Below, piece by piece: positions 24,492 to 49,445 of a DNA stretch of 64,000 nt. The position numbers were made by a program, and so were the translations under genes. The DNA is from Arcobacteraceae bacterium (GTDB lineage Bacteria > Campylobacterota > Campylobacteria > Campylobacterales > Arcobacteraceae). The notes beneath the pieces were generated by a model. It was not told where the DNA came from and did not search any database. It saw only the letters and a program-made list of their open reading frames with translations. The first letter of the stretch is position 1, and the number at the start of each line of letters is the position of its first letter. The stretch spans positions 2,144,001 through 2,208,000 of the forward strand of contig OY759974.1 of assembly GCA_963662945.1 (NCBI GenBank), given 5' to 3'.

Positions 24492-24518
24492 AAAAAAGGT
24501 CTTAAGATGACCTTTTTT
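24492..24518 (-). terminator. Intrinsic (bidirectional-type) terminator
   Basis: AAAAAAGGTC-TTAAGAT-GACCTTTTTT right after the stop of 24523-25089. Confidence 0.75.
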
Positions 24519-24522
24519 ATTT

Positions 24523-25089
24523 TTATACAGCACCCATTAGTACTTTTGTGCTTTCTCCAATTAGTTCACACATTTCTTCATAAGATTTTGATTTCTCTTC
24601 AACATCTGCTTCAAGTAATTCTTCATAAAGTTTTTCAATTTTATCTTCATTGCTTTTGATTGATTTCATATCTGATTTATCTAAATCAGCTAAATCTAAT
24701 AATTCATTCCAAACTGAACTTTCATCAAGCATAAAAGCTGTGAATTTTACACCTTCGTATTCAAATGTACCATTTCCTTCTAAGTCTGTTACATATAAAA
24801 GATTTAATCCATCTTTGCTAAAAAATTGTTTGTATTTTTCAAAAAGAGGTTTGAAATGATTAAAACTTTCTAACTCACAAGCAAAAAATTTGATTGCTTC
24901 ACCTTCATTAATCATAATAACTTGTCTTGCTTGGATTTTTGGAGGTAATTTTCTATCTGGGCTTAATTGTTTTCCCTCTTCAACTATCATAGCTCCTCTG
25001 TAACCATAAAGTCCGTTACTTAATTCACCACTAAAAGATGGTTGCCAATCTAATTCATTTTCTTTCATATACTCAATAACAGTTGCCAT
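24523..25089 (-). CDS. Hypothetical acidic protein (188 aa)
   Basis: AAGGA RBS, own promoter and terminator; no family recognised. Confidence 0.75.
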   Translation of the reverse strand: MATVIEYMKENELDWQPSFSGELSNGLYGYRGAMIVEEGKQLSPDRKLPPKIQARQVIMINEGEAIKFFACELESFNHFKPLFEKYKQFFSKDGLNLLYVTDLEGNGTFEYEGVKFTAFMLDESSVWNELLDLADLDKSDMKSIKSNEDKIEKLYEELLEADVEEKSKSYEEMCELIGESTKVLMGAV

Positions 25090-25122
25090 TGTAATTCCTT
25101 GTTGTAATTTATCAATTGGCTA

Positions 25123-25139
25123 TGCAAGTATTGTTCCAA
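25123..25139 (-). promoter_or_regulatory. Sigma54 (-24/-12) promoter
   Basis: Minus strand TTGGAACAATACTTGCA (GG-N10-GC). Confidence 0.8.
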
Positions 25140-25156
25140 AATGTATTATTGAAATA

Positions 25157-26224
25157 TTATACGGCAATATCTATAGAATTTACCATACCAGCTCCACTTC
25201 CATCTTCTTTAAGAAAAACTCCATTACTTTTTTGTACGGCTTCTGTGTTGTCAATACTACTTTGGTATTTAAAGCCACTTTGCACATCTCCTAAATAGAT
25301 TGCACCAACATTTAAATCAAGTAATGAAACGAGTTTACCTTCACCTTGTTCATCTATTTGCCAAATTTTTAATTTGTTAAAAACGTCATCATTTTCATCT
25401 ATCCAGTTATTATGGTCTTTATCATAAATAGACAAATCTTTAAACCCATTTCCTGATTCTGTTCCAAATAGTTCACTACCATTATCTATAATGCCATTTT
25501 CATTTTTATCTAAAGCTAAATATCCAGCACCTTGTTTTAACATTGGAATTAAATCTTTTTTTCCATCATTATTTAAGTCAAATTCAAATTTTAATTCACT
25601 TAAATTTTCAAAAGGATTAACATCGTCATCATAGTTAATCACTAATGGGTCAAGGAAACTTTCATCTCCTATAGATATTCTTGTGCTATGTGATTCGTAT
25701 AATTCTTTGGAATAAGAGATAGATAAATTAATATTAAAACTTTTATTTGGAGTTTTTATTTCTAGTGAGGTACTAAAATCTACAGTTTGTTTTTGATAGT
25801 ACTCTTCTGTTTGTTTATAAACCATTCCAAAAAGTCCACTATTATTTTGTGTTCCATTGTCTCTTTGTACATAAGGATTTTGTTGAGGATAATCTAGACT
25901 AACAGATTTGCTTTTTGGATACATATCTATGGTGGTTTTATCTCCATAAAGTCGACCTAAAAGCTTTTCTATTAGAAGTTTTTTTATTCTATCTTCAAGA
26001 CTCATCGTATCTTCATAATCATAAATGATTCTACTTGAAGATACAGTTGTTGTTTGAGAATAATTAAAATCAAGAAAAAAAGCATTACTCTGTTGACTTT
26101 TATTTGCTTCTTCTTGATTTGCATTATTTTGCCCAAAGTGTATTCTTAAATCAGTAGTCGTAGAATGTGAGTACTGAAATGTTGATTCACTGTACATATT
26201 GACGTTTGCACTTTCTATTTTCAT
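25157..26224 (-). CDS. Hypothetical protein with DxNxDG Ca-binding (EF-hand/VCBS-like) C-terminal module
   Basis: DPLVIN, FDLNNDGKKD, LALDKNENGIIDNGSELFG, YDKDHNNWIDEND..FNKLKIW. Confidence 0.75.
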   Translation of the reverse strand: MKIESANVNMYSESTFQYSHSTTTDLRIHFGQNNANQEEANKSQQSNAFFLDFNYSQTTTVSSSRIIYDYEDTMSLEDRIKKLLIEKLLGRLYGDKTTIDMYPKSKSVSLDYPQQNPYVQRDNGTQNNSGLFGMVYKQTEEYYQKQTVDFSTSLEIKTPNKSFNINLSISYSKELYESHSTRISIGDESFLDPLVINYDDDVNPFENLSELKFEFDLNNDGKKDLIPMLKQGAGYLALDKNENGIIDNGSELFGTESGNGFKDLSIYDKDHNNWIDENDDVFNKLKIWQIDEQGEGKLVSLLDLNVGAIYLGDVQSGFKYQSSIDNTEAVQKSNGVFLKEDGSGAGMVNSIDIAV

Positions 26225-26256
26225 TAAAAACTCCTTAATTTAAACTATATCAAAGA

Positions 26257-26285
26257 ATTGTATAATAAAAAAGGGTCTTTGTCAA
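26257..26285 (-). promoter_or_regulatory. Sigma70 promoter
   Basis: Minus strand TTGACA-N17-TACAAT upstream of 26224. Confidence 0.7.
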
Positions 26286-26313: not shown

Positions 26314-27129
26314 CTAGTTTGGTTTTTTATATCCTAACTTTGTCATAATATCCATAGGACTCATATCATAGTTTTCTGCAACTTCTTTAAATTTATCATC
26401 TTCAGAAGCTTCTATGCCTAAAGCTTTTAGTTTATCCAGTAATTCTTTTGGAGATATATTTAAAGCCATTGCTACATCTTTAATTTTCTTTTTTCCTAAT
26501 CCTGTAAGAGCAACTATTTTTTCTCCACTTGCTTCAAAGTTCTTTTTTAAAAGACTATAAATAAATTGTGGACTAACATTATTTTCTTTTGCTATTTGAG
26601 ATAAGCTTTTTTCTAGTTCATATACAATATTATTTTTTTTGAGTATCTCTTCACTTTTTTCTAAATTAAAACCAACTTTTTTACAAAAGCTTTTTAATGA
26701 TGAGAGTTCTGCATGAGAATAGGGTGCTGTACCATATTGTTTTTCCCAACTCTCTTTTATATCAGAACCAAAATCTAAAAATGTAGAAAATGGTGTAATT
26801 TGGTAGAGAGTACCTGTTAAAAATACTATAGTTAATAAAATAGCTATAATCATATCTTGAGTAAATACTATCATCTCTTTGGCAGTATTTTTCATATAAC
26901 TTGTCATTGGCTTCCAATTATAAAAAACATGTAGTATAGTTGCTATAATAAAAAGAACCATAAAAGTTGAATGTATATCAGCATATTGAGTTTTAGTCAA
27001 TCCTAAAAGTTCCCAATTTGCCCAATTTGCAATTCTTCCAGGAGGTGTTATAAATAACATAATACCAGTATAAGTCATAACTATCATTGATAGTAACATT
27101 GTGAGTGAAGTTGTTTTTTTAAGGTTCAT
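26314..27129 (-). CDS. DUF4405-like membrane protein with helical repeat tail
   Basis: TGIMLFITPPGRIANW, IH...LH.FYNWK, PYSHAELSSL. Confidence 0.7.
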   Translation of the reverse strand: MNLKKTTSLTMLLSMIVMTYTGIMLFITPPGRIANWANWELLGLTKTQYADIHSTFMVLFIIATILHVFYNWKPMTSYMKNTAKEMIVFTQDMIIAILLTIVFLTGTLYQITPFSTFLDFGSDIKESWEKQYGTAPYSHAELSSLKSFCKKVGFNLEKSEEILKKNNIVYELEKSLSQIAKENNVSPQFIYSLLKKNFEASGEKIVALTGLGKKKIKDVAMALNISPKELLDKLKALGIEASEDDKFKEVAENYDMSPMDIMTKLGYKKPN

Positions 27130-27140
27130 CTAAAATCCTT

Positions 27141-27638
27141 TTAAAGTTTATTGAGTGTTAAAAACAGTTTACCTTGTATTATAGCAAAGAATAGGATATA
27201 TAAAGTCATTAAGATAGTAAAGTGAATTCCAAATATTCCTATCATAAAAGGAAGCATAGGTATTTTTATAGCACGTGCATAAAAGAAAATTATAAGAAGT
27301 TCATCTTTGACACCTTCCTCTCTTAATTCAGATATTAAACCATACCACGCATACATTGGACCATGACTTATAATACCAGCTACTAATGCGTAGAAAATTC
27401 CTTTTTTTCCACTATTTTCTCCAAAATGTTTGATGATATCTTTTGGTTTTAAAAAATAGTTAATAAATGCAGTTAAAATGATGATAAAGATAAATATAGG
27501 TATGAGTGTATAAAGTATTGAAAAAAAAGATTTTAGGGAGATAAGAGCATTATTTGTGTCAAAAAGCAATAATAAAATATATGTGAAGATAACCACATAT
27601 AAAAATTTTAATCCTTTATATTCTATGGTGTTTTTCAT
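27141..27638 (-). CDS. Predicted permease (DUF318-type half)
   Basis: GIISHGPMYAWY, RAIKIPMLP; hydrophobic. Confidence 0.7.
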   Translation of the reverse strand: MKNTIEYKGLKFLYVVIFTYILLLLFDTNNALISLKSFFSILYTLIPIFIFIIILTAFINYFLKPKDIIKHFGENSGKKGIFYALVAGIISHGPMYAWYGLISELREEGVKDELLIIFFYARAIKIPMLPFMIGIFGIHFTILMTLYILFFAIIQGKLFLTLNKL

Positions 27639-28078
27639 CTAAAAATCTCTAAAGTTAAAACAGTGAGATATGCAACAAACATTGTTGCTCCTAAAGTTAA
27701 AATATTTTTATAAAAAGTAAATTTTAAACCAAATACACTCACCTCTGCTGGAAGTTGGACAATACCCAGTGTTACCCAAGAAAGGATAAAGGCACTGACC
27801 GCGTATAATGATACACCTTGGGTTAGTAATTGATCACTTATGATATAACTAACAGCAGGATTTCCAGATGAAATAGCTCCTATAAAAGTACCTGTAAAAA
27901 TATCAGTTATTTTTCCATATCCAAAAAGATGGGCTAACATATCTGGTGTTATATAGGTTTGCAAAATTCCAATAAACCCAATAACTCCCAACAGCATAGG
28001 TATCATTGATAAAAAATTGTCTAGTGCTTTTTTTAAAGCAAATTTTGGCGTCATATTTTCTTTAATTTTTGTATCCAT
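27635..28078 (-). CDS. Predicted permease (DUF318-type half)
   Basis: GAISSGNPAVSY, SWVTLGIVQLPAE. Confidence 0.7.
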   Translation of the reverse strand: MDTKIKENMTPKFALKKALDNFLSMIPMLLGVIGFIGILQTYITPDMLAHLFGYGKITDIFTGTFIGAISSGNPAVSYIISDQLLTQGVSLYAVSAFILSWVTLGIVQLPAEVSVFGLKFTFYKNILTLGATMFVAYLTVLTLEIFR

Positions 28079-28199
28079 TTCTATTCTTTTATAGTATTTT
28101 ATAAATTTTATCGCAAATCTTCTATAAAAGATATTTTTTCATATTTATATTAAGTTCCCCTATGATAATATTCTAAAAATTTTAATATAAGATTTACCT

Positions 28200-28718
28200 A
28201 TGAAAAAAATAGAAAAAACAAATACACCGAATTTCATCGATAGAATATTTAAGAAACTCAGTAATATTGATAAAATACTAGAAAATAAAATAGATAAAAT
28301 TTTATTACAATTGATTAATATTTTAAGATATGTTTTTATTATAACAATGATGTTGTACTTATTTATTTGTATTATGAGTTTATCACATAAAATTATTTCC
28401 CTTACAATTAGTCAAGGTGCTTTAGATTTTCAATCAATAAAAATGATTTTAACTGATGGTTTATTTACTCTAATTGTTATTGCAATTGTAAAAACACTGT
28501 TTATTAAAAATGGTTATGATTATGCATTGACATTTTTAGAGATAGGATTTGTTGTTGTAATACGAAAATTAATTCTTTTAGATGCCTCCCCTGAAGAAGC
28601 TATGATGACAATGACATTAGGCGCGACATCTGCTTTATTTTTTATTCTAATTGTGTATGTGCATAATATAAAAAATAAAGCAAAAAAAGAGGAAGAGTTA
28701 CTTTCCAATAGCAAGTAG
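28200..28718 (+). CDS. PsiE-family membrane protein
   Basis: Four TMs, FLEIGFVVVIRKLIL. Confidence 0.6.
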   Translation: MKKIEKTNTPNFIDRIFKKLSNIDKILENKIDKILLQLINILRYVFIITMMLYLFICIMSLSHKIISLTISQGALDFQSIKMILTDGLFTLIVIAIVKTLFIKNGYDYALTFLEIGFVVVIRKLILLDASPEEAMMTMTLGATSALFFILIVYVHNIKNKAKKEEELLSNSK

Positions 28719-29954
28719 ATAGAGAATATTATTCTCTGTCTTTAAAAACTCTTTTGTTTCCTCATCATAATAAGCTCCAATCCCACTACAACCTATTTCT
28801 CTTAGTTCTGATTTTAAATAAATAATTTGTGCAATAAATCCACTTAAAATATTTACTTTTTGGTATGCATGATTTTCATTTGAAGTGAAGTAAAAAGTTA
28901 CTGCACTTTGTCCTCCAAGGTTTTGTTCTAAGCTTAAATAACGAGATCTTGCACTAAAATCACCTTCACTTTGAAGTTGATTATTTTTATATAAGCCTTG
29001 AGCCATTCCTTGCACTCTATGAACAGTATAAAATATATCAATATTATTAGAAGTAGCAAATGTAAAAAGACTTTGCGTGATAAATGCAAAATCACTTTCT
29101 TCTATAGGTAGTTCTCTAAATGCTCTAATAGAACGACGATTTAAAATAGCACTTTTTAGCTGTTCTTTAGGAATTGAATCAAAAAAAGTTAGATTCGTAA
29201 TATCATCGCTTAGATAGTTTGCAGTTTGTTTATATTCTTTTTCTATAAATTGATTTGTTTCTAAAAAATCACAACCACTCACAAATGGTAATCGTTGTCG
29301 TAAAGGTTTTGTTTCTTTATCAGTTTGAGTTGTTGAAGAGATTACACAAGTAAACATCTCATCATCTCTAAACCCAAAGATATCATTTAAACTAAGTTTA
29401 TCAAAATCAAACACTATTTTTGATTCTTTCTCCATTACACAAAGTGCTGCATAAATGCTTCCTAAAGCATGACCAGAATCTAGAAAAATATATCGAATAC
29501 TTCTATCTCTATATTTCCACGAACTTCTAAAATAAATAGAAGAGATTAAAAAAGTAATCCCTTTTTGTTTTGATTTATCTTTAAAATAATATTCGACTCC
29601 ATCATTGTCAATTTCTTGGAGTAAACATAATGATTTAGTATGAGGTTCATAATGATATACACCACTTATCAGTCCATTGATACCTCTTAATTGTACATAT
29701 ATTTCACAAGGATATAAAGCTCCTGCACTAGGATTTGTTCTAAGATAATATTTCCCCTCAGGATACTCTTTTTCAAAAGTAATCCCACCTATTAGATTGA
29801 GATTTTTTAACTCAGGATAATCATCTATAAAAAATCTTTGAGAAAAATGAGGATAAGTTTTAAAGTTTTTAGGTTGCGTTCTCCAATCTAAAAAGTTGGC
29901 ATTTTTACGAATACTCATATAAGAATGGTTTGTTTTATTATGTTGATGTGACAT
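28698..29954 (-). CDS. SagB/ThcOx-type nitroreductase-family protein
   Basis: LRTNPSAGALYPCEIY, WKYRDRSIRYIFLDSGH, RRSIRAF, GCSGIGAYYD. Confidence 0.85.
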   Translation of the reverse strand: MSHQHNKTNHSYMSIRKNANFLDWRTQPKNFKTYPHFSQRFFIDDYPELKNLNLIGGITFEKEYPEGKYYLRTNPSAGALYPCEIYVQLRGINGLISGVYHYEPHTKSLCLLQEIDNDGVEYYFKDKSKQKGITFLISSIYFRSSWKYRDRSIRYIFLDSGHALGSIYAALCVMEKESKIVFDFDKLSLNDIFGFRDDEMFTCVISSTTQTDKETKPLRQRLPFVSGCDFLETNQFIEKEYKQTANYLSDDITNLTFFDSIPKEQLKSAILNRRSIRAFRELPIEESDFAFITQSLFTFATSNNIDIFYTVHRVQGMAQGLYKNNQLQSEGDFSARSRYLSLEQNLGGQSAVTFYFTSNENHAYQKVNILSGFIAQIIYLKSELREIGCSGIGAYYDEETKEFLKTENNILYLLAIGK

Positions 29955-30047: not shown

Positions 30048-31865
30048 TTACCAACAATAAACTCTATTTCTACCTGTTTCTTTTGCTTGATATAAACCTT
30101 TATCTGCTTTTTCTAAAATCATTTCAAAAGTTTCAAAATCATTTTTTGCACAACTTAGACCAAAAGATGCAGTTACATTTTTTACTTCTGGAAAAGTATG
30201 CATTTCTATAGCTTTTCTTATTTTTTCTGCAATTTTTTGAGCAGTTAGTATATCTGTATTCGTTGTTACTAATACAAATTCTTCTCCTCCCCATCGAGCA
30301 AAAATATCGTATTCTCTAATTTGTTTTTTTACTATAGTAGCTAGTTCTTTAAGAACTTCATCTCCTACACCATGACCATAAGTGTCATTTATATTTTTAA
30401 ACTTATCTATATCTATCATCATCACACACATAGAACTTGTAAAAGGATTGATATCTTTTAGTCTTTCTTCTAAAGCTCTTCGATTGAGTATTTTTGTAAG
30501 AGAATCTATTTCTGCTTTATTTTTTAATGTTATGTTTATTTTTTTTAGTTCTATTTGTTTTTTTTGTAAAATAGTTAAAAGATAATTAAAAAATTTTGCT
30601 ACAAGTCCAACTTCTGTTCCTCTTTCTTCATGTATTTTACTTTGAATATTCCCTGTTTTCATAATCTTTACAATACTTTCAATAGTATCTACCCAAGGAA
30701 GTTTTGCATTATGTTCACTTACATTTAAACCTAATACTTCATGTCTTTTTCGTACTCTTAAAAGACCTATTTTTGCTAAGAAAAGAAAAAAAGCTATACC
30801 AATAAAAAAAGCAAAAACAAAAGCCGTAGAGATACCAAGAGTTTGTACTAAAATATACTCTATACGAGTTTGTCCTTCTTGAAGTGGTGCAAAAATACCA
30901 ACAGCTAATGTTCCCCAGATACCTGCAAATCCATGAACTCCAACAACACTTAAAGGGTCATCTATTTTAAACTTCTTTAAGATAAGTTGGTCAAAAAAGA
31001 ACATAATAAAAGCTGACATTAAACCAACAAAAGCTGAAATATGTGTTGTAAATTGATCACAACCAGCCGTAATACCTACAAGACCTGCAATAAGACCAAA
31101 TGAGAAAATTTCTACACCAACTTTATCTTTATTGATAAGACTTATGAGCCATCCTCCAAGTCCACCAAAGGCAGCTGCAATAGTTGTATTTAAAAGAATT
31201 GTAGTTACGAGTGGGTCAAATTTGAGTAAACTTCCTGCATTAAATCCAAACCAAGCAAAAAAAAGTATAAAAACACCAAACACAATGAAGTTATGATTAC
31301 TTGGGGCAAAATAATTTATACGACCATGTTTAAATTTTCCTAATCTTGGACCTAATATTAATGCCCCAGCTAATCCAATCCAAGCACCAATGGAGTGTAC
31401 AACTGTAGAACCTGCAAAATCTTTAAAACCTAGATTTTGAAGCCATCCATTTTCTCCCCAAGCCCAATGTCCAAAAATAGGGTAAATAAAAGAAGTAACA
31501 ATAATTGCAACTACAATATAAGCATTAAACTTCATTCTTTCAGCAACAGCACCCGATACGATTGTTATGGCAGTTGCTGCAAACATTGCTTGAAAAAAGA
31601 AAAAGCCATTTTCATTTAAGTTTGTTCCCTCAATTGCAAAATTACTAAAACCAATAATTCCACCAATATCAGTACCAAACATCAGTCCAAAACCAATAAG
31701 CCAAAAAAAGATAAGACTAAATACTGTATCAATGAGGTTTTTCATAGCTACATTGATAGTATTTTTTGATCTTACTGTTCCAGTTTCAATAAGTGCAAAA
31801 CCAAGTTGCATCATAAACACCAAAAATGCACAAAGCAGTATCCAAAGTAAATCAATATTTTCCAT
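30048..31865 (-). CDS. Ammonium transporter (Amt) fused to a GGDEF diguanylate cyclase
   Basis: FMMQLGFALIETG, DFAGSTVVH, WFGFNAGS, DDPLSVVGVHG; C-terminal DIDKFK...REYD...GGEEF. Confidence 0.92.
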   Translation of the reverse strand: MENIDLLWILLCAFLVFMMQLGFALIETGTVRSKNTINVAMKNLIDTVFSLIFFWLIGFGLMFGTDIGGIIGFSNFAIEGTNLNENGFFFFQAMFAATAITIVSGAVAERMKFNAYIVVAIIVTSFIYPIFGHWAWGENGWLQNLGFKDFAGSTVVHSIGAWIGLAGALILGPRLGKFKHGRINYFAPSNHNFIVFGVFILFFAWFGFNAGSLLKFDPLVTTILLNTTIAAAFGGLGGWLISLINKDKVGVEIFSFGLIAGLVGITAGCDQFTTHISAFVGLMSAFIMFFFDQLILKKFKIDDPLSVVGVHGFAGIWGTLAVGIFAPLQEGQTRIEYILVQTLGISTAFVFAFFIGIAFFLFLAKIGLLRVRKRHEVLGLNVSEHNAKLPWVDTIESIVKIMKTGNIQSKIHEERGTEVGLVAKFFNYLLTILQKKQIELKKINITLKNKAEIDSLTKILNRRALEERLKDINPFTSSMCVMMIDIDKFKNINDTYGHGVGDEVLKELATIVKKQIREYDIFARWGGEEFVLVTTNTDILTAQKIAEKIRKAIEMHTFPEVKNVTASFGLSCAKNDFETFEMILEKADKGLYQAKETGRNRVYCW

Positions 31866-35952: not shown

Positions 35953-37816
35953 AAGATCGTTAATTAGTCTTATTTTAGTTCCTATTACTTTAGTTTCTAT
36001 TGTAATTATTTTTATTACTTATGAAACATTTAGTCATTATTTACAAAAAGAATATGAAAAACAACATTTATCCAAAATAGAACAAGATGCACAAAGACTT
36101 TTTTTAATTATGAAAAGTAGATATACAAATATAATATTTCAATCTATTGATGATAAAGAATATTATATAAGATTGGTACAAGCTTTAAAAGTAGATTTGC
36201 AAAGAGATTTAAAAAATGAACTATCTTATTTAAAATATGATGGATATATTTATGATATAAATACTGATTCTATGATTGAATTATATATGCAAAATAATTT
36301 TATCCATATGAAAAATGATTCAAACATAAAAAAAGCTTCTATAGTATCAACACAAGAGGGCGATTTTATAGTTAAACAAATAGAATTTAAACCTTTTAAG
36401 TGGGTAGTTGTAATTTCTAAAAATACTGATGACTTACAGCGAGATATAGAAGAAAACTTGCTTATTACACTTCTTTTTATGATTATAATGCTCTTTTTTA
36501 TTATTTTGATTTTTTTATTAGTATTTAACAAATACATAAAAAAAGATATTGTAAAAATTATAAACCATTTTAAAAATAAATTGGTAAATAATCAATATGA
36601 ATTATTACAAGTAGATATGGTTTCTCAAGAAACACAAGAACTTGAAGATGGATTGAATAGTGCAATTTTAGAAATAGAAAAATATGCTAAGCAATTAGAA
36701 ATTGCAAATCAAAATCAAGATATATTGTTATCATTATTTGATAATGGAGATACAGTTTTAGTCAAATGGAATAATGATCAAAACTGGAGTGTTAAATATA
36801 TTTCAAAAAGTATTTCAATTTTATTAGGGTATAAACAAGAAGAATTTTTAGAACATAAAATATCTTATAAAGATTGTATATATAAGGATGATTTGGATTA
36901 TGTAGAATTTGGTGTTAAAAAATCTTTGTCAAAAAAATTTAGATTTTTTAAATCAGAACCATTTAGATTAGTAACTAAAAATGGGAAACTCAAATGGGTT
37001 ATTAGTCATTCTATACCTGTAAAAGATAAAAAAGGAATTGTAAGTCATTTTGTAAGTCACATATCAGATATTACTTATTTAAGAGAAAAAGAAGTAATAG
37101 TTTCACAACAATCTAAATTGGCTTCAATGGGTGAAATGATAGGAAATATTGCCCATCAATGGAGACAGCCATTATCGATTATTTCAACAGGTGCTACTGG
37201 TATGCTAATGCAAAAAGAACTCTCTGCACTTAATGATGAAAGTTTTGAACAAACTTGTAATATGATAAATGAAAATGCACAATATCTGTCTAAAACTATA
37301 GATGATTTTAGAAATTTTATAAAAGGCGACAGAGTTAAAGAAAAGTTTACTATTGAACGAAGTATAAATCGTTTATTGAGTTTACTGGATGGTTCCATTA
37401 AGCATCATAATTTGACAGTGATTGTTGATATAGATAAAACAATTGAAATAGATAGTTATGAAAATGAACTGACACAATGTTTGATGAATATATTTAATAA
37501 TGCAAAAGATGCATTGAAAGAAAATAATAAAGAGAATGATAGATTAATTTTTATAAGAGTGAAAAGAAAAGACAATTTTGCCATTATAAAAATAAGAGAT
37601 AATGGAGGAGGAATACCAGAAGAAATTTTGCCAAAGATTTTTGAACCATACTTTACTACAAAACATAAAAGCCAAGGTACTGGACTAGGACTGCATATGA
37701 CTTATAATTTAATAGTATCAGGATTACAAGGTACAATTGAAGCTAAAAATGTTAAGTTTAAATATCAAAATACTATGTACAAAGGTGCAGAATTTAAAAT
37801 TGTATTAAAAATTTAA
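35942..37816 (+). CDS. Membrane PAS sensor histidine kinase
   Basis: [16 protein letters not shown]-box, [26 protein letters not shown]. Confidence 0.92.
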
Positions 37817-38244
37817 TGAATACTTTGACAAGAGTCACTACTTTGACAAGTTGGTACTGAAATTCTTTCGCAAATATTTGTGTTAAGTAATTTATTTATT
37901 TTTTCTATATCAAATCCACATAAATAACTACTGCCAATTTGAAGAAGAGGTCTTTTAATTAAAATAGGCTCTTGACACATTCTCTCAATCAGTTCTTCTT
38001 TTGTAAAGTCTTCTATTTTTAATTCATTATTTTTTATTTTAGGTGCAAATTGATTTACCATGGCACTTTTGTTTAAGCCTTGAAAAAAAGGTTCTAACGT
38101 TTCTTTTGTCCATGGAGTATCAAGCAGGCTTTTTGTTTGATAAGAAAGACCATTTTTTTCTAAAACTTGTTTTTGTCTTTGGTTTCCAGAACAACCTGTT
38201 TTTTCATAAAAAACTATAGTGTACTTATTTGGTATAAATTGCAT
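37813..38244 (-). CDS. ArsC/Spx-family protein, nitrogenase-associated subtype
   Basis: FYEKTGCSGNQRQK..L, PWTKETL, APKIK, PILIKRPL, GFD. The N-terminus fits the nitrogenase-associated ArsC-like group (recalled motif FYEKPGCxxNxRQK). Confidence 0.7.
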   Translation of the reverse strand: MQFIPNKYTIVFYEKTGCSGNQRQKQVLEKNGLSYQTKSLLDTPWTKETLEPFFQGLNKSAMVNQFAPKIKNNELKIEDFTKEELIERMCQEPILIKRPLLQIGSSYLCGFDIEKINKLLNTNICERISVPTCQSSDSCQSIH

Positions 38245-38252: not shown

Positions 38253-38822
38253 TTAATTCATATATGGTATATCTAATGTAGCATCTCTATCACTAGCACT
38301 GAAATCATAACTATCATCAGTATTGAGTTTTGACAAATTTTTTTCGACCATTTTGATTTGAAGTATATGATAGTTACTTTTTTCAATGTTATATTGTATT
38401 TGTGTTTTGTAATAACTTAAAATAATTGGATGAATTTTATCTTGATTTTCAAGCAATTTTTCTAAAAAACTTTTTATTTTAGAGATATCATATTCATCAA
38501 TTTTTTTTAACTTTCGTAATAAATTTCTTACAAATTGTTTTTGGTGGTATTGTTCGCTAATAGTTAAAAGTTTTGAAGCAGCATAGATATCTGCTACAGT
38601 TTCAGAATAATTATAAAGATATCGAAAGTGTTCACAAACTATCTCTATATATTTTGGATAGTGTTTCAGTACAAAAACAAGCTCTTTTAAGTCTCCATCC
38701 ATCAACACTTGGAATAAAGTTGCAGTTCTTTTTTGTATCTTTTCCCAGTGACCACTACCCTCCGTAGTATTTAAATCACCTAAAAATCGTTCATAATTTT
38801 CTAAATCATATTCTTCTTCCAT
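38253..38822 (-). CDS. Hypothetical protein (189 aa)
   Basis: Start moved to ATG 38822 because the TTG at 38837 lies inside the promoter. Confidence 0.7.
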   Translation of the reverse strand: MEEEYDLENYERFLGDLNTTEGSGHWEKIQKRTATLFQVLMDGDLKELVFVLKHYPKYIEIVCEHFRYLYNYSETVADIYAASKLLTISEQYHQKQFVRNLLRKLKKIDEYDISKIKSFLEKLLENQDKIHPIILSYYKTQIQYNIEKSNYHILQIKMVEKNLSKLNTDDSYDFSASDRDATLDIPYMN

Positions 38823-38832
38823 ACCGTAAATA

Positions 38833-38848
38833 TGCAAGAAGTGTACCT
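38833..38848 (-). promoter_or_regulatory. Sigma54 (-24/-12) promoter
   Basis: Minus strand AGGTACACTTCTTGCA. Confidence 0.75.
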
Positions 38849-40731: not shown

Positions 40732-41078
40732 TCTTTTGAATACCTTTTCATTTGATATCTTTATAACATAAATTATTATAAATTCTACTGAGATAAATAA
40801 AATATTGTGTAAGTTTGGATGAAAAGAATTATAATTAAATAATTTATACACTAATTTTTTAAAAAAGAAATTTTTAAGAAATAATCTTTGCTTATAATGA
40901 AATAAAAGAAAAAAAGGTAGTGGTTATGAATATGTATAGGTTATCTACAAAACTTATTGAAAAACTAAAAAAAGCCTCAGTAAAAATATCAAAAAAACAA
41001 AAAAACAAAAGAAAATAAATTATTCTTTAGGTACACTTTATGAATATAATAAAGCATATTCATAAAGGTAACAAAACT

Positions 41079-42259: not shown

Positions 42260-42487
42260 ATGAAAAAAATAAAACAGCCATTTAATCCGAATGCTTTTGA
42301 TGTAAATTTAAAAGTATCTGATGTAGTAGAAAAATTTCCGCAACTTTTAGAAAACAATTATCAAACAGTAAGTTTAAATGAAGAACTTACAAAATTAAAT
42401 TACGAGATAGCTTCAAGAGATTATGAGGATAAAAAATATGAATCTATCGAAGAATATTATGATTTAGATGTGGATTATATCGTATAG
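42260..42487 (+). CDS. Small acidic hypothetical protein
   Basis: GAGGA RBS; 2 bp after the AKR stop. Confidence 0.6.
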   Translation: MKKIKQPFNPNAFDVNLKVSDVVEKFPQLLENNYQTVSLNEELTKLNYEIASRDYEDKKYESIEEYYDLDVDYIV

Positions 42488-43093
42488 CTCTTCAAATCTA
42501 TAATGTTCTTTTAGAAGCTTTAATGAGTTTTTAAAGGTACGAGTTTCTTTTTCATCAAATTCAGAACCATTGAGTTTTAATTTATCGTAAATAGTATTAA
42601 GTTCTTTTTTTGACAGTTGTGTTAAGTCTTCATTATGCATTAGGTCTTTAATTTCATTTATATCTGATTGTGGCATAGGAAAGTCAGTATAATATTGTCC
42701 TATTTTATTTACACCCCAAAAATCAATTCCTAATCTCAGATAAAATTGTAATGAAGATGAAACACAATGCATTTTGACTCTTTCAATATCTGCTTGAAGA
42801 AGTATATTATTAAATAGTAAAGTTAAGAGTTGTTTTGCATAACCTTGAAATCGAGATTCAAATGGAGTAAGAATATTATGAATTGTAAGGTATTGATTGT
42901 TTCTTGAAATATGAAAAAAAAGATAACATACATCTTCTCCATTATCTTCTAAACAAAGGCAAGGAAATTTATTCCAACTATAATAACTATCCCACCAATC
43001 AAGTGATTGTTGTGCAAATTGCTGTGAACCTGCGTGTTTGATGTGGGCGATAGATTGAATGTATTGTTCTCTGTTTAAATTTTTTGTTGTCAT
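42464..43093 (-). CDS. GNAT-family acetyltransferase
   Basis: LTPFESRFQGYAKQLL (motif A), SLQFYLRLG. Confidence 0.7.
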   Translation of the reverse strand: MTTKNLNREQYIQSIAHIKHAGSQQFAQQSLDWWDSYYSWNKFPCLCLEDNGEDVCYLFFHISRNNQYLTIHNILTPFESRFQGYAKQLLTLLFNNILLQADIERVKMHCVSSSLQFYLRLGIDFWGVNKIGQYYTDFPMPQSDINEIKDLMHNEDLTQLSKKELNTIYDKLKLNGSEFDEKETRTFKNSLKLLKEHYRFEELYDIIHI

Positions 43094-43161
43094 TTTGGCT
43101 CTCTTTCGATTACAGGCCAAATGTCTAATTTTAAGCAATAAATCTTTATTAAATAATACTC

Positions 43162-43177
43162 TGCAAGTACTATACCA
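43162..43177 (-). promoter_or_regulatory. Sigma54 (-24/-12) promoter
   Basis: Minus strand TGGTATAGTACTTGCA, overlapping the stop of the upstream gene. Confidence 0.7.
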
Positions 43178-45122
43178 CTACTTTATTTCTACCACTTTCT
43201 TTTGCTCCATAAAGTTTGTTGTCAGTAAGTTTATATATCTCTTGAGCTTGATAGGTATCATTAAAATCTATAATAAAAAGTCCCATTGAGATAGTAACAT
43301 ATTTAGAAGCAGAATTTCCTGTATGTTCAATATGTAAAGCTTCAATATTTTCTCTAACTTTTTCTGCCATAGAAAAAGCATCTTCTGAAGTTTCTACAGA
43401 GTAAAGCATACCAAATTCTTCTCCACCTAGTCTAAAAATATAGTCGCCAGCTCTATTTAAACTCTTTGTCAAAGACAGTGCCACTTTTTTGAGGACACTA
43501 TCCCCTTCTTGATGACCATAAGTATCGTTGTATTGTTTAAAGTGGTCTATATCCATAATTGCAAATGCTAAAAGTTTTTTGTCTCTTTCGGCTATTTTTA
43601 TTTGTTTTTCAAATATCTCATCAAAATATCTTCTATTGTATAGATTTGTTAACCCATCTGTAATAGAGATAGTATGGAGTAGTTTGTTAGCTGTAATATT
43701 TTGTGCATAGGAGTGATAACCAATAATCTTGTTATTTTTATCTTTCATAGTAGTAATATTAAGATGTATCCAGTAGGTATTTCCCTCTTTATTTACATTT
43801 TGTAGCTCTCCACTCCAGCTACCATTTTCTTCTAAACTTTTATAGAGTTCTTGATAAGTTTCTTTTGGCGTATTGATGCCTGAAAGCATATTATGTTTTT
43901 TCCCTATAAGTTCCTCTTTTGTATATCCTGTAAGTTCACAAAATGCACTTGAGACATTTACCATTTTAGATTCTAAATCTGTAGTGGAAAAAGCTACATA
44001 CTTATCAATAATTTTACTCTCTCTTGAAAGTTCTTCTTGTGTTTTCATCAACTCATTACTAAGCTTTACAGGGGCGATTGCCATTAAAAATGCTATAGGG
44101 ATAGAGATAATAAAGATAATCAAAGTAATAGTTATGATATAGCTTGACTGCTGTTTTTTCATCTGCTCTATTTTATCTTGATCAAATTCATATAAAAGTA
44201 TAAGACCATCTTCATTATATAAACTATCTGATATATTATAAGAGAATATCCCATCGGTACTAAATTGTTTCAAATTTAAAATTTTTGATGCAACTGCTGG
44301 AAATTCTGTTTTTAAAGAGATGTTTTTATTGAGATGTTTTGACCAAGAATAATCCTCTATATTTCCTTTTGTAGTTTTTTCATAATGGATAAAATCACCA
44401 TTTTTATCTATAATAGAGACTTTAAAAAGTGCTGATTTTATAATTTCATCAAGTATAGATTTTGCAAATATGTTTATGATAACAATACCTTCATATTTAT
44501 GCTTAATATACATAGGCATTGCAATTCGTAAGGTTGGAGTAAGGGGATAGCTGATTTTGTTGTTTTCAATATTAAGATCAATTTTTGAGCTCCATATTTC
44601 ATTCTCATTTTTCCCTTTTGTTTGTTGAAAATAATATCTATCAGCTTTGTTTTGAAGTTTTTCATCTGGCATAATATAAGGTTTTGAAGCTATGTTATTT
44701 CTATCAATTCTTATATTTTCTAAACCATTTTTATCTATATATCGTATTTGCATAAGTTCATCAACAACAACCATATGACTTTTTAAAATCTCTTGCATAT
44801 TTTCTTTGAACTTTTGTTTCATTTGAATATCATCGTTATTTATACTTATATATTGTTGGAAAGTTTTATTTTCATTGATTGAATGTAAAATATTTTCATA
44901 AATCTTTATATGATTACTTAGAGTTGAAATTTTTAGTTCAAAACTACTTTGTGCTGAGTCATAGAGTTCTTCATTGATACTCTTTTTTTCATAGTAGGTG
45001 CTTACAAAAAATGAGATAAAAGCAATAATAAGTCCAAATATTCCAAAAAGAAATATAAAAAGAGCTCGAACATTAAATGAACTTGAAAATATAAATTTTG
45101 TAAAATTACTTGATCCTTGCAT
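43170..45122 (-). CDS. Diguanylate cyclase (dCache-PAS-GGDEF)
   Basis: MQIRYIDKNGLENIRID, PAS, RAGD I-site, GGEEF; paralog of 38863-40731. Confidence 0.9.
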   Translation of the reverse strand: MQGSSNFTKFIFSSSFNVRALFIFLFGIFGLIIAFISFFVSTYYEKKSINEELYDSAQSSFELKISTLSNHIKIYENILHSINENKTFQQYISINNDDIQMKQKFKENMQEILKSHMVVVDELMQIRYIDKNGLENIRIDRNNIASKPYIMPDEKLQNKADRYYFQQTKGKNENEIWSSKIDLNIENNKISYPLTPTLRIAMPMYIKHKYEGIVIINIFAKSILDEIIKSALFKVSIIDKNGDFIHYEKTTKGNIEDYSWSKHLNKNISLKTEFPAVASKILNLKQFSTDGIFSYNISDSLYNEDGLILLYEFDQDKIEQMKKQQSSYIITITLIIFIISIPIAFLMAIAPVKLSNELMKTQEELSRESKIIDKYVAFSTTDLESKMVNVSSAFCELTGYTKEELIGKKHNMLSGINTPKETYQELYKSLEENGSWSGELQNVNKEGNTYWIHLNITTMKDKNNKIIGYHSYAQNITANKLLHTISITDGLTNLYNRRYFDEIFEKQIKIAERDKKLLAFAIMDIDHFKQYNDTYGHQEGDSVLKKVALSLTKSLNRAGDYIFRLGGEEFGMLYSVETSEDAFSMAEKVRENIEALHIEHTGNSASKYVTISMGLFIIDFNDTYQAQEIYKLTDNKLYGAKESGRNKVVV

Positions 45123-45166: not shown

Positions 45167-47149
45167 CTATAAACTATCTATATCTTTTATAATCTTTTGA
45201 ATATTAGTAGAGTAACTAAAACAGCTACTTATCTTACACGCTAAATACTCATCACTATCATACTCTTTTTTATAAACAAAGGGATAGTTGAAATCTTTTG
45301 GTGAAAATTTTTCAAGATTTTCTTTTCTTGCTTTGATAAATACAGGTTCATATTGAAAATACAAAGATGCCATTGTAGTATTTGGAAAATATGAGGGATA
45401 TTTGTTGATATGTTCTATGTAGTATTGCATTGATTTTTTTACTATCTCATATACTTTGTAATCTTCTTGCATAGAACTATAGAGTATGAGGTTGTTAAAA
45501 AGTACCCCTAAAGCACTTGCATACCCACTCTCTTCAATATCTGCATAAGTTTCAAATCCATCATTTGATTCTATCCATCTTCCATCTTTGTAAAACAGTT
45601 CAATTGATTTTTTTACAAGCTCTTCATAGAGGGTGAGATATTTCTCATCTAAAGTAATTTGATAGGTTTCAAACAAGGTATCAATCAAAAAGCTATAGTC
45701 TTCTAATATCCCACTTTGAACAGGTGTTTTCCCTTTGATTGTTTGGTGGTAAAGTTCCCCATTTTTATACATCAAAGATATTAAACTATCAAGTGAGCTT
45801 AGTGAGTTTTTTAGGTACTCTTTATCTATTGTAGAAGCTATGAGTTTCCCTTTTAGATACAAGGCATTCCAAGCTGTATTTATTTTATTGTCTATAAATG
45901 GATACTCTTTTGTATCGCGGATTTGTTTTAAAAGTGTTATAACTTTTTTTAGGTTTTGTGGTTTGTTTACCCCTAAAATCTCTGGGTTTGAATACTCCCC
46001 ATCAAAGTTTCCATCTTTTACAATTCCTAAATATTTAAGTGACTCGATGGCATCTTTTTCATCAATACCATTTTGTTCTAAATACTCTAAACTCTCTATA
46101 TAATCAAAGACAAAATAATACCCCTCTTCATTTTTCCCTTGGGCATTTTTGCTATCTGCATTACTTGCACTTTTATATACACCATCTTCTAAAAATCTTT
46201 CATCAATTTGAGAAATTGTTTTTTCAATAATCTCTTTAAACAAAGGCTCTTTTGTAATTTTGTAAGCTAAGGTGTATGCTTCAAGAGCTTCTGCATTGGT
46301 ATATAACATCTTTTCAAAATGTGGTATTGTCCATTTTTGATCTACACTATATCTATAAAAAGCCCCCTCAATTTGATCAAATATACCACCTCTTGCCATA
46401 GCTTTTAGAGAATCTACAGCCATAGTTAAAGCTTCTTTGTCACCGTTGATTTGATAGAGTTTTAAAAGCAATATAAGATTTGTAAATTGTGGAAACTTTG
46501 GATGTGTACCAAACCCTTTATACTCTTTGTCATAACTATTTTGAAATTGAGTGATAAGAGTATCTACTACCTTATCATCATAAGTTGCTTTTGAGAGTTG
46601 AAAGTTTTCTTTACTGTTTACCACTTCAAGGATATGTTTCCCTTGCTCTTGTAATTTTGTCCTATCAAAAAGAGCAATCTCTTTTAATACTTCTATAAGT
46701 CCTCGTGAGCCATATCCCGCATATTTTGGTACATAGGTTGCAGAAAAAAATGGCTCTTTGTCAGCTGTCATTGCAATAGTAAGTGGCCATCCACCACCTC
46801 GTTTATTCATCACTCTGTAAACTTTTTGATAAAAACCATCAATATGAGGAAACTGCTCTCTATCTATTTTTATAGAGATAAAATCTTTGTTTAAAATCTT
46901 TGCCACCTCTTCATCTTCAAAAGACTCATGTGCCATCACATGACACCAGTGACAAGTGCTATATCCAATAGATAGAAAGATAAGTTTATTTTCTTTTTTA
47001 GCTTTAGAAAAAGCTTCATCTCCCCAAGGGTACCAATTCACTGGATTGTCTTTGTGTTGTAAAAGATAAGGGGAAGTTTCATTTTGTAATTGATTTGCCA
47101 TAATAATTCCTAAAAAAATAATAAATAATAGAAGAGCTTTTGTAAACAT
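45167..47149 (-). CDS. YyaL/SSP411 (DUF255) thioredoxin-domain protein
   Basis: [53 protein letters not shown]. Start at 47149 (AGGAG). Confidence 0.9.
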
Positions 47150-47258
47150 AGTAAACTCCTTTTGATTAATCATAGCACTTGATTATTAAGAGATATTGAA
47201 AATTATAATTGAGTTTTTTGAATAATATTGGATTTATTTAAAGAGTTTGGAGAAGGAG

Positions 47259-48398
47259 CTATTTATCAAAAATAACCAAACTTCTCCCAAATGGTATCTT
47301 ATTTTTATTTTGAGATAAAGCCCATATCACTTCATATGCAGGTGGGATTCTTGGAAAAATCCCCTCCCCATCAGTAAAGTATAATAACATACTAGACATT
47401 GGAATATTTGCATCAATATACTCAAAAGTAGGGCGATAGTCTGTTCCACCTCCACCTTTGAGTGGAAAATCCATCTCTTCTCCACCCATAAAACTATGGT
47501 GCGAGTGTACCTTCGCATCTGCTATAAGAAGTTCTATAGAAACAGCAGGGAAGTTTTGCATGATAGATTTAAACTCCCCTATAAATGCTCCTAAGATATC
47601 TTCTCGTATTGACCCAGAGGTATCTATGGCAACTATGAGGCTTAGTGTATCACTGGTTAAACTTGGCAGTGCTACACCCCTATAGATATGTTTTTTGTTT
47701 GGTGGCATGAAGGCATAGTTATTTCTCATGTGACGATTGATGGCGTTGTAAAGTTCAAATTTCCAGTCGATGTCGTTTGCTTTGATTTTTTTGGCAAATC
47801 TTTCAAGTCCTAGTGGAGTTGAGCTGTTTTTTAGTGTAACTTCTTTTGCTAAACTAGCTGCATAGTCCCACTCCTCCATAGTTTTTTCATCATCTGGATT
47901 GTTGATATTTTTGAAAATAGAGCTATCTCCATCTTTTTCTTTTATAAAGCTTTCTAAGTTTTTTACATCATCATAACTACTTGTACCATTTTGTTCTGCA
48001 AATTCTTTTTTAAGTATCTCATATATCTCTTCAGAATACATATTTTTATACTCAGTGTTGTAGTTTGCACCCTTTGGTATTTTGAGTTTATTTTTGGCTA
48101 ACATATTATTTATAGCATAGTCAGTTGCCAGTTGCCACAATACACCTTTACGATTTAGTTTTCTTTGATTGTGTGCTAAAATATGGTGCATAACGCAGTT
48201 TGTAAGGATAAAAAAAAGTTCATCTTGTGAGAGACTTTCTATATAAGTTGGATTATAGATAAATCTTTTACCATTACTTGCAAAATAATCTATAGCAGAA
48301 TTTTCCTCATGCTTTAATCTTGAAGCTAACATCCCAAAGTAGGGGTGTTTTGCTGTGAGTTGACTTTTTGCTTTGGTTAATTTAAGAGTTGCATCCAT
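47259..48398 (-). CDS. DUF2201-type protein (metallopeptidase-like N-terminus plus VWA domain)
   Basis: LWQLATDYAIN, VAIDTSGSI MIDAS, GGGGTDYRP, YFTDGEG. Confidence 0.85.
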   Translation of the reverse strand: MDATLKLTKAKSQLTAKHPYFGMLASRLKHEENSAIDYFASNGKRFIYNPTYIESLSQDELFFILTNCVMHHILAHNQRKLNRKGVLWQLATDYAINNMLAKNKLKIPKGANYNTEYKNMYSEEIYEILKKEFAEQNGTSSYDDVKNLESFIKEKDGDSSIFKNINNPDDEKTMEEWDYAASLAKEVTLKNSSTPLGLERFAKKIKANDIDWKFELYNAINRHMRNNYAFMPPNKKHIYRGVALPSLTSDTLSLIVAIDTSGSIREDILGAFIGEFKSIMQNFPAVSIELLIADAKVHSHHSFMGGEEMDFPLKGGGGTDYRPTFEYIDANIPMSSMLLYFTDGEGIFPRIPPAYEVIWALSQNKNKIPFGRSLVIFDK

Positions 48399-49399
48399 TA
48401 GTGTAGTAAGGTATTGAACTTTCTAGCCCATAGTGGCCAACTTTTTATATAATCAAGTGCAATATCACGGCTTCGTAAATCTTGCACTATCATAACAGCA
48501 AATTCTCCTGGTAAATTAAGAGTATATTTAAGAAGATTATCTAATTCGGCTGCTCTTGTTTCTTCGTCTATTTTCATAGTAAGTGAAGTACAAAGTATAT
48601 GTAAAGCAGAAGTTTCTTCAGGTACATCTGTACTAGTTCCATCAAGAATTTTATCTATATCTGGCAGGTTTTTTGCAACACTTTTAAATCCTAAAAAGGA
48701 AGCAGCCAACTCTTGCCCAATAGCACCACTTACCATATCCATAAGAAGGTCATCATCTGGCGTTGAAGCTAAAATCTCATTGACATATTCCCAAGTTCGT
48801 GGAGTTGCAAATGCTTTTGAGTCATTTTGTGTATTAAAAGCAAAAAGAGCATCTGGTCTATAAGAAGTAAAAGCGATAATAGTAGGGTCAATATCTGTAG
48901 TTTTTGCCCAAGCTTGCCAAACATCTAAATCAACTTCCATATCAAGGTGAACAAATCTATTTGCAAGTGGTGAAGCCATACGAAATACAACGCCTCTATC
49001 ACTTTCTCTATTTCCAGCAGCAACTATAGCCCAACCATCAGGCAAAGTGTATTCACCTATTTTTCTATCAAGGATTAACTGATAAGCACTTGCTTGTACC
49101 ATAGGAGCTGCTGTGTTAAGTTCATCTAAAAATAAAATCCCCTCTTTAACACTTCCATCAGGTAAAAATGAGGCTTTCGCCCAAACAGCACTATTATCTG
49201 CACTATCAAAAAATGGTATTCCTCGTAGATCTGTAGGGTCTAAAAGTGAAAGTCGTAAATCTATAAAACCTATCTCTCTATCTTTTGCAATTTGAGATAC
49301 GATTGAAGACTTTCCAATACCTGGAGGTCCCCATAAAAATACTGGTACTTTTCTTTTTGTTAAGTGGTCTATTGATCTTTTTGCTTTACTTGGATTCAT
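48398..49399 (-). CDS. MoxR/AAA_5-type ATPase
   Basis: WGPPGIGKS, DPTDLRGIP, LFLDELN, AAGNR, PLANRF, TPRTWE. Start placed at MNPSK (AAGGAG 49408-49413). Confidence 0.9.
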   Translation of the reverse strand: MNPSKAKRSIDHLTKRKVPVFLWGPPGIGKSSIVSQIAKDREIGFIDLRLSLLDPTDLRGIPFFDSADNSAVWAKASFLPDGSVKEGILFLDELNTAAPMVQASAYQLILDRKIGEYTLPDGWAIVAAGNRESDRGVVFRMASPLANRFVHLDMEVDLDVWQAWAKTTDIDPTIIAFTSYRPDALFAFNTQNDSKAFATPRTWEYVNEILASTPDDDLLMDMVSGAIGQELAASFLGFKSVAKNLPDIDKILDGTSTDVPEETSALHILCTSLTMKIDEETRAAELDNLLKYTLNLPGEFAVMIVQDLRSRDIALDYIKSWPLWARKFNTLLH

Positions 49400-49428
49400 A
49401 TATGCTACTCCTTGGTTTGTTAAGCTTA

Positions 49429-49445
49429 TGCAAGAAGTATGCCTA
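49429..49445 (-). promoter_or_regulatory. Sigma54 (-24/-12) promoter
   Basis: Minus strand TAGGCATACTTCTTGCA. Confidence 0.8.

Follow-up and report, generated by a model that had tools for sequence, protein, structure and literature searches.

Promoters upstream of four uncharacterised units

What connects four units of uncharacterised genes that lie scattered over one 64-kb stretch of an Arcobacteraceae genome (contig OY759974.1; the whole stretch is called the window below, and plain positions refer to it)? The units encode a 188-aa acidic protein (unit 1), a 189-aa protein with an ArsC-like protein (unit 2), a GNAT-like acetyltransferase (unit 3) and a MoxR-type ATPase with a VWA-like protein (unit 4). 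A preliminary description of this DNA had reported four minus-strand sites with GG-N10-GC spacing, each just upstream of one unit, and had proposed a co-regulated RpoN (sigma-54) module linked to nitrogen fixation. We recovered all four sites, and promoter sequences, regulatory machinery, gene co-occurrence and conservation in relatives support the proposal. Judged from these sequence comparisons, the sites are very probably sigma-54 promoters belonging to the organism's NifA regulon.

The strict pattern WGGNAYANTWCTTGCA matched the window exactly four times (at 25123, 38833, 43162 and 49429), always on the minus strand, and was absent from 100 dinucleotide-preserving shuffles of the window (mean 0.00, maximum 0). 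Because the pattern was derived from these same sites, the count within the window is circular, and the whole genome serves as the independent check. GG-N10-GC spacing and a TGC(A/T) box at −12 are common to all four. Measured from the end of the motif to the start codon on the same strand, P1 (TGGAACAATACTTGCA, 25123..25138) lies 33 nt upstream of unit 1, P2 (AGGTACACTTCTTGCA, 38833..38848) 10 nt upstream of the ATG of unit 2, P3 (TGGTATAGTACTTGCA, 43162..43177) about 68 nt upstream of unit 3, where it overlaps the stop codon with which the upstream GGDEF gene ends, and P4 (AGGCATACTTCTTGCA, 49429..49444) 29 nt upstream of the moxR ATG of unit 4. Two of the promoters had been described as hidden by over-long open reading frames (ORFs), and indeed the mechanically called ORFs 38253..38837 and 48398..49498 begin at TTG codons that overlap or enclose P2 and P4. 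A scan for sigma-70 promoters returned no more sites than in shuffled sequence, and Rfam gave no match at E≤1 in positions 22000-52000.

The same motif at nif genes and a single activator

The genome is a single contig of 2,497,315 bp with 28.9% G+C (its coordinates carry the prefix C1). The strict pattern occurs six times in it, the two additional matches lying 5' of a clpX paralog in the nif region (C1:447869) and of nifV (C1:2304838). A scan with a position weight matrix (PWM) built from nine sites and restricted to NGG-N10-GCN gave 370 matches of at least 8 bits. Each of the nine best (at least 21 bits) is located at most 140 nt 5' of an ORF on the same strand. They comprise the four window sites, of which P1 is the second best genome-wide with 24 bits, and those of nifH (TGGAACACTATGTGCA), the nifX operon, nifV, the clpX paralog (clpX2) and an aldo-keto-reductase/flavoprotein operon adjoining nifA. 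The genome scan suggested in the preliminary description thus recovered the promoters of nifH, nifX and nifV. The nifX operon runs nifX-DUF269-flavodoxin-PII-nifW-nifZ, followed by two ferredoxin genes and, last, rpoN (C1:715339-716592). Lower-scoring intergenic matches front an operon of a flavodiiron protein and nifQ, a 277-aa ORF next to nifA, an Oxidored_nitro paralog, an operon with redoxin-like, ankyrin and GNAT genes, another MoxR gene and another VWA operon; the nifB promoter is TGGAACACTTATTGAA, a variant with GA at −12. The promoter type (T/A)GGAAY-N5-YTTGCA thus fronts nifH, nifX, nifV, the flavodiiron-nifQ operon, the clpX paralog and the four window units.

Some of these loci deserve mention in their own right. 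The flavodiiron protein (ODP and flavodoxin domains) is encoded together with nifQ at C1:479417-481002, and the extra Oxidored_nitro gene (NifD/K/E/N-like) occupies C1:497150-498552. At C1:446588-447884 the clpX paralog, whose product is 49% identical to the housekeeping copy, is followed by FmdE-like and MOSC-like genes. The nif cluster of Azotobacter vinelandii contains clpX2, which this gene resembles as a second ClpX copy in a nif region behind a sigma-54 promoter. It lies outside the window and validates the promoter model.

The machinery expected for such promoters is encoded in this genome. The preliminary description had asked for rpoN, nifA and nifHDK, and all were found. Outside the window there is a full Mo-nitrogenase gene set, with nifHDK, nifENX, nifB, nifV and nifQ, of which nifH, nifD and nifK score above their equivalog cut-offs, and the domain scan agreed with the earlier statement that the window itself contains no nif structural gene. 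A single rpoN gene encodes the AID, CBD and DBD domains. PF00158 had ten matches at E≤1e-3, one of them strong (4.3e-78), with the next (4.8e-7) falling on ordinary AAA+ proteins. The sole sigma-54 activator, encoded at C1:452391-453911, combines GAF, Sigma54_activat, AAA lid and HTH_8 domains and has no cysteine-rich linker. With only one activator in the genome, any sigma-54 promoter there has only that protein to use. The activator of the four units had been left without a name in the preliminary description; it can now be assigned to the genome's single NifA-type enhancer-binding protein.

These results also bear on whether the motifs are promoters at all. They could be chance matches, or other binding sites or structures, a view to which the overlap of P3 with a stop codon and the distance of only 10 nt between P2 and an ATG lend some colour. 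Nevertheless, no match is expected in shuffled sequence, the identical motif stands before nifH, nifX and nifV, rpoN is present, and position and orientation are kept in orthologs despite diverged flanks (see below), so that we regard this explanation as having next to no chance of being correct.

Co-occurrence of the units with nifH

The distribution of the machinery and the units was examined in 151 Arcobacteraceae genomes from 22 genera, 53 of which carry nifH; genomes with and without nif genes coexist in seven genera. The rpoN gene was present in 52 of the 53 nifH-positive genomes, the exception being an assembly of 350 contigs, and in 0 of the 98 nifH-negative ones. The strong activator was likewise found in 52 genomes, with one NifA-type copy per nif-positive genome; a second type occurred in only four nif-positive genomes, and two nifH-negative genomes carry a different activator type. 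This distribution of rpoN fits its absence from Arcobacter butzleri, which according to PMC2147049 has no rpoN, fliA or NtrC-type regulators.

The units follow the same pattern. Among nifH-positive and nifH-negative genomes, respectively, the gene for the 188-aa protein was found in 46/53 and 2/98, orthologs of the 189-aa gene in 25/53 and 1/98, the ArsC-like gene in 39/53 and 1/98, the gene for the 209-aa GNAT-like protein in 30/53 and 0/98, and the VWA gene, as an ortholog class of at least 70% identity, in 29/53 and 0/98. A VWA paralog class of about 40% identity is present in nif-positive and nif-negative genomes of the family alike. The two nifH-negative holders of the 188-aa gene are an assembly of 330 contigs, in which a partial copy sits where a contig ends, and a genome of 77% completeness, which is also the sole nifH-negative match for both the 189-aa and the ArsC-like genes. 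A complete nif-negative genome from the window's own genus (G011) has none of the units.

In a wider sample of 301 genomes of the phylum, 33 of them with nifH, the profile of the 188-aa family matched 20 of the 33 nifH-positive genomes, from four families, and 1 of the 268 nifH-negative genomes. That single nifH-negative copy (G398:C180:1158-1521) is broken, with two TGA stops and pieces in two frames, which would fit decay once nif had been lost, although this genome of 230 contigs may instead have been misassembled there. Profiling the genes against nifH, as the preliminary description had recommended, revealed co-occurrence throughout the family, which in the case of the 188-aa gene extends to the phylum.

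Conservation of promoters and gene neighbourhoods

The preliminary description had stated that a motif not conserved in orthologs would speak against its proposal. P1 retains GG-N10-GC at an unchanged distance in 11/12 orthologous loci; P2 is kept in 11/11 readable loci, 10-12 nt before the ATG of a conserved MEEEY-type N-terminus; and P4 is kept in 9/10 (P3 is discussed below). Across the phylum, the relaxed pattern [AG]GAAY-N5-NTGNA was found upstream of unit 1 in 76 of 78 testable loci, compared with 1.6% of random 105-nt windows. These unit 1 promoters fall into the classes GG/GC (34), GG/GT (20), AG/GC (19) and GG/GA (3). The 19 loci with AG at −24 belong mostly to Sulfurimonadaceae and read TAGAAY-N5-TTGCA, the 20 with GT at −12 to Aliarcobacter/Arcobacter, and GA at −12 is shared by the remaining three unit 1 loci and the nifB gene of the genome studied here.

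The units had been described as dispersed, which is true of this genome; in relatives they adjoin each other or sit in nif clusters. In two genomes (G040 and G147) rpoN and nifH flank the 188-aa gene, in two further family genomes it is found beside rpoN, and one genus (g20) has unit 1 next to unit 2. A contig of G103 that carries nifH also holds VWA-C, a paralog of the 189-aa gene, VWA-A, the 189-aa gene and the ArsC-like gene, with the 188-aa gene 16 kb further on. A search with a 13-row alignment of the 188-aa family yielded 80 loci from named public records, all of them from Campylobacterota (Arcobacteraceae, Sulfurimonadaceae, Sulfurovaceae, Sulfurospirillaceae and Nitratifractor). Within 10 kb of the 188-aa homologs in these 80 loci, tblastn with the proteins of the present genome located ClpX2 in 25, orf277 in 25, NifX in 13, NifV in 7 and NifA in 6.

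Such neighbourhoods raise the question of whether the units are passengers that ride on horizontally moving nif DNA, with a promoter type due to common origin and with no role in fixation. The patchy occurrence of nif within seven genera suggests gain and loss of blocks, the units cluster with each other and with nif genes in relatives, and each of them is dispensable in some nif-positive genomes. In the genome studied here, on the other hand, the units are about 1.7 Mb away from nifHDK and separated by unrelated genes, yet they have retained their promoters. Moreover, the unit 1 protein keeps 59-94% identity from genus to genus within the family, its promoter is retained in four families, and the sole copy in a nifH-negative genome of the phylum sample is broken. 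Retained promoters at dispersed sites, conservation of unit 1 and the broken copy indicate selection tied to nif, and we consider mere passenger status to be highly improbable.

Activator identity, upstream sites and the scope of the regulon

Several observations weigh against the assignment of the four units to a NifA regulon. The best NCBIfam model for the activator is nifA, but the score of 511.4 bits is below the equivalog cut-off of 528.85, and its sigma-54 contact loop reads GAFTDA instead of GAFTGA. Sites of the form TGT-N10-ACA numbered 2 within 400 nt of 17 promoters, with 2.5 expected; none lies within 260 nt of the four window sites, in line with the preliminary description, which had seen none in the upstream stretches that it checked. 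None of the dyads of 4-5-mers with spacers of 0-20 nt was enriched upstream of first 12 and then 17 promoters. P3 is kept in only 5/10 loci, those of the closest relatives, and the DNA upstream of unit 1 is unrelated between lineages. Depending on the unit, 7 to 28 of the 53 nifH-positive genomes lack it, and hence none of the units is essential for fixation. Furthermore, related genomes are not independent samples, so that co-occurrence could partly reflect shared inheritance. Finally, the gene of a DUF255 thioredoxin-domain protein (45167..47173, minus strand), located 85 nt downstream of unit 4 and possibly reached by read-through, was tried as a further member of that unit and rejected: it is present in 40 of the 151 genomes, both with and without nif, and is not counted because it adjoins the VWA gene in the four closest relatives only.

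As for the upstream sites, the missing TGT-N10-ACA elements make a classical proteobacterial NifA site, located some 80-200 nt upstream, less probable, but do not lower the probability of co-regulation, because no other activator exists in the genome. A palindromic AAGATAAA..TTATCYT-like box precedes the nifH promoter by about 90-125 nt (C1:471600-471640 in this genome) and is kept in most of the 17 readable nifH promoters of the family; it is a candidate activator or integration host factor site. No such box was seen near any of the 16 remaining promoters of this genome, those of the window units included. Regarding P3, the unit 3 loci that do not have it either retain the conserved leader described below or have the gene following another ORF. 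One genus (g13, with three nif-positive genomes) carries none of the units.

Given these points, the promoters could be real while the activator is a broader regulator of nitrogen or redox stress, the units then serving general nitrogen-limited or microoxic physiology, such as behaviour linked to cyclic di-GMP (c-di-GMP) or thiol homeostasis, instead of nitrogenase itself. Consistent with such a regulator are the score of the activator under the NifA cut-off, the failure to find a NifA-type upstream activating sequence, the flavodiiron, redoxin-like, aldo-keto-reductase/flavoprotein and clpX genes in the regulon, the GGDEF/EAL and Amt-GGDEF genes interleaved with the units, and the absence of every unit from some nifH-positive genomes. 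A general stress module would, however, be expected in nif-negative relatives too, and the units practically never occur where nifH is missing. In addition, rpoN and the activator are confined to nifH-positive genomes (52/53 as against 0/98), and both are located in nif clusters. We therefore judge a broader regulator to be improbable, and retain the NifA regulon as the most probable explanation of the four promoters.

Within a NifA regulon, the following course of events may be envisaged. Under a shortage of fixed nitrogen, and probably of oxygen too, NifA would remodel closed complexes of the sigma-54 holoenzyme at all these promoters, and the four units would be switched on together with nitrogenase. 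Their products might then serve nitrogenase maturation, redox or oxygen protection, or repair, with the MoxR/VWA pair perhaps acting as a remodeller powered by ATP, for which the 189-aa family would be an adaptor or client.

Unit 1

The gene for the 188-aa acidic protein (24523..25089, minus strand) is followed, 5 nt past its stop codon, by an intrinsic-terminator-like hairpin (24492..24518, minus strand) with a 10-bp stem and a T run, a structure of which 0.1 are expected in shuffles; the unit looks monocistronic from its sequence. The protein belongs to an unnamed Campylobacterota family. A word-index search returned 256 homologs, all labelled hypothetical and from Campylobacterota wherever a source was named (among the named holders are Halarcobacter ebronensis, Halarcobacter anaerophilus, Arcobacter sp. 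LA11 and Sulfurimonas lithotrophica), and the family comprises 87 representatives at E≤1e-3, with identities down to about 20%. Invariant residues include YRG, LPPK, LDES(S/T)VWNE, three lysines and a C-terminal GAV. No Pfam or NCBIfam model matched the protein, a Pfam search with 57 family members gave one stray match only, a profile search of the PDB had a best E of 0.3, and ESM Atlas contained no usable match. AlphaFold2 produced a confident model (pLDDT 93.5), in which no known fold was recognised, either by Foldseek (best E 3.7e-3, TM 0.29) or by VIA (best Z 3.7); for a predicted model, such a weak or missing match is no proof of a new fold. The 188-aa and 189-aa proteins were also compared as possible paralogs, and this relationship was rejected.

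Unit 2

The first gene of unit 2 (38253..38822, minus strand) encodes the 189-aa protein of an unnamed family without a Pfam match. Its AlphaFold2 model is all-alpha (pLDDT 81.8) and had no fold match in Foldseek (best E 0.32). The second gene (37813..38244, minus strand) encodes an ArsC/Spx-fold protein (Pfam ArsC). The preliminary description had assigned it to a nif-associated ArsC subtype. The closest model is TIGR01616, "nitrogenase-associated protein" (a full-length alignment, residues 9-133 to model positions 2-126), and the gene co-occurs with nifH, but the score of 102.6 bits is just below the cut-off of 109. Of the 14 phylum loci with a 189-aa match, 10 have the ArsC-like gene behind the 189-aa gene; the other four (L125, L145, L158 and L168) have no ArsC-like match. 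Since P2 lies 10-12 nt before the ATG, with its C at −12, transcription would start at the first base of the ATG or no more than 2 nt from it, which predicts a leaderless or near-leaderless mRNA.

A 238-aa paralog of the 189-aa protein (34% identity) is encoded at C1:2263379-2264095, and in all 14 loci examined its gene adjoins or overlaps a third VWA gene, VWA-C. Beyond this association, nothing hints that the 189-aa family may work with MoxR/VWA systems. The region around the paralog (C1:2261815-2270565), about 55 kb past the end of the window, contains further sigma-54 units that resemble those of the window. There, CGGCACATTTATTGCA fronts VWA-C, the 238-aa paralog, an Mqo/DAO-type FAD oxidoreductase and a HAD hydrolase, and TGGTATAAAATATGCA fronts the third MoxR gene, 4 kb from the VWA-C operon. 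An 848-aa ankyrin-repeat protein and a radical-SAM gene are found between the two.

Unit 3

Unit 3 (42464..43093, minus strand) encodes a 209-aa protein that is a putative GNAT acetyltransferase, as suggested by the annotation of its homologs together with a weak direct match. The direct Pfam match, to Acetyltransf_7, is sub-threshold (E 0.023). Four of 49 homolog clusters, which are 47-55% identical to the protein, carry PF00583, and one is named GNAT family N-acetyltransferase; an R-x-x-G-x-A motif (RFQGYA) was spotted by eye. The 68-nt 5' leader (43094..43161, minus strand) contains a AAAGATTTATTGCTTAAAATTAGACATTTGGC...GATCGAAAGAGAG-like stretch that is kept, as judged by eye, in 7 of 10 loci, two of them without the promoter. 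The leader has no Rfam match and may be a regulatory RNA or a protein-binding site.

Unit 4

The first gene of unit 4 (48398..49399, minus strand) encodes a 333-aa MoxR/AAA_5-type AAA+ ATPase with the Walker A sequence GPPGIGKS and the Walker B sequence LFLDE. AAA_5 and AAA_3 both matched at E 2e-6, above their cut-offs; the best solved relatives are AAA modules of midasin, and the protein is one of three MoxR paralogs in the genome. The second gene (47259..48398, minus strand), whose start codon overlaps the moxR stop codon at 48398, encodes a 379-aa protein composed of DUF2201_N and a DUF2201 VWA-like domain (80.5 bits) with the MIDAS motif DTSGS. This protein had no sequence match to any solved VWA chain.

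Neighbouring genes

As the preliminary description had listed, an Amt sensor (the Amt-GGDEF fusion), a flavodoxin and iron uptake genes (TonB/ExbBD/Fur and iron transporters) lie nearby. Four c-di-GMP genes are interleaved with the units at 22401-24374, 30048-31865, 38863-40851 and 43170-45122; their products are a HAMP-GGDEF-EAL protein, an ammonium-transporter-GGDEF fusion and two dCache-PAS-GGDEF proteins. Among the four genes, two terminate right at P2 and P3, and in relatives these promoters have other upstream neighbours. Positions 26314-29954 hold unrelated-looking genes for a SagB-type dehydrogenase/nitroreductase (418 aa), a split ArsP-like permease (27141-27638 and 27635-28078) and a DUF4405 protein.

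Relation to known systems

A NifA/RpoN regulon is a well-known kind of system, and it is the members found here that are new and lineage-specific. As in proteobacterial NifA-RpoN regulons, an activator with GAF, AAA+ and HTH domains and sigma-54 appear to act at GG-N10-GC promoters of nif genes and of additional genes that are not nif. In Mesorhizobium loti R7A, nifA and a second rpoN are carried by its symbiosis island, according to PMC3538637, and the physical linkage of rpoN and nifA to nif genes is common to both organisms. Unlike the proteobacterial regulons, the present one has a single rpoN with NifA as its only activator, no TGT-N10-ACA sites were found within 260 nt of the four window promoters, and the extra members come from other protein families. 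The consensus GGAAY...TTGCA also deviates from the canonical sigma-54 consensus GGCAC...TTGC. In contrast to TIGR01616 proteins, the ArsC-like protein scores under the cut-off and has as its partner a 189-aa helical protein from outside any named family.

MoxR-type AAA+/VWA pairs mature or repair metalloenzymes: CbbQ/CbbO act on Rubisco, NorQ/NorD on NO reductase and CoxD/CoxE on CO dehydrogenase. By its sequence features unit 4 resembles these pairs, in that an AAA_5/AAA_3 ATPase and a VWA protein with a MIDAS motif appear to be coupled in translation and regulated together with a complex metalloenzyme; it differs from them in that the VWA protein is of the DUF2201 type with an N-terminal DUF2201_N. 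A literature search of titles and abstracts found no link between MoxR/VWA systems and nitrogenase. Nitrogen fixation in Campylobacterota (Arcobacteraceae, Sulfurimonas, Sulfurovum and relatives living in sediments, at vents and in waters poor in oxygen) has chiefly been approached by surveys of nifH, and no work on a NifA/RpoN regulon in Arcobacteraceae or Campylobacterota was found in our search, which did not extend to subscription journals.

Three aspects are new. Firstly, sigma-54 and its single activator occur in Arcobacteraceae only together with nif, and sigma-54 thus looks dedicated to nif. Secondly, the consensus GGAAY...TTGCA has lineage variants at the "invariant" dinucleotides. 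Thirdly, the regulon holds conserved unnamed families, one of them without a recognisable fold, plus two MoxR/VWA systems. Suggestions as to what these proteins do come from regulation, distribution and domain content, and direct action of the products on nitrogenase is on this basis conceivable, though not probable. Only tentatively, the units could be Campylobacterota-specific nitrogenase helpers, in which the 188-aa protein would be a protective or regulatory partner of nitrogenase or of NifA/sigma-54, and the two MoxR/VWA systems with the 189/238-aa and ArsC-fold proteins would constitute an ATP-driven machine that matures or repairs nitrogenase in microaerophiles, in analogy to the Rubisco activase CbbQO or to NorQD. 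The 188-aa protein has a confident model without a known fold and is retained in nif clusters in four families, where rpoN or nifH is often its neighbour.

Because sigma-54 of this family apparently serves nif only and has a single activator, every sigma-54 promoter points to a gene linked to nitrogen fixation. The resulting list of candidates consists of the protein with an unmatched fold, the pair of helical and ArsC-fold proteins, the GNAT protein, two MoxR/VWA systems and the flavodiiron protein. With it, several uncharacterised families join the genes that accompany nitrogenase in Campylobacterota, and they are relevant to the question of how an oxygen-sensitive enzyme is assembled and protected in microaerophiles.

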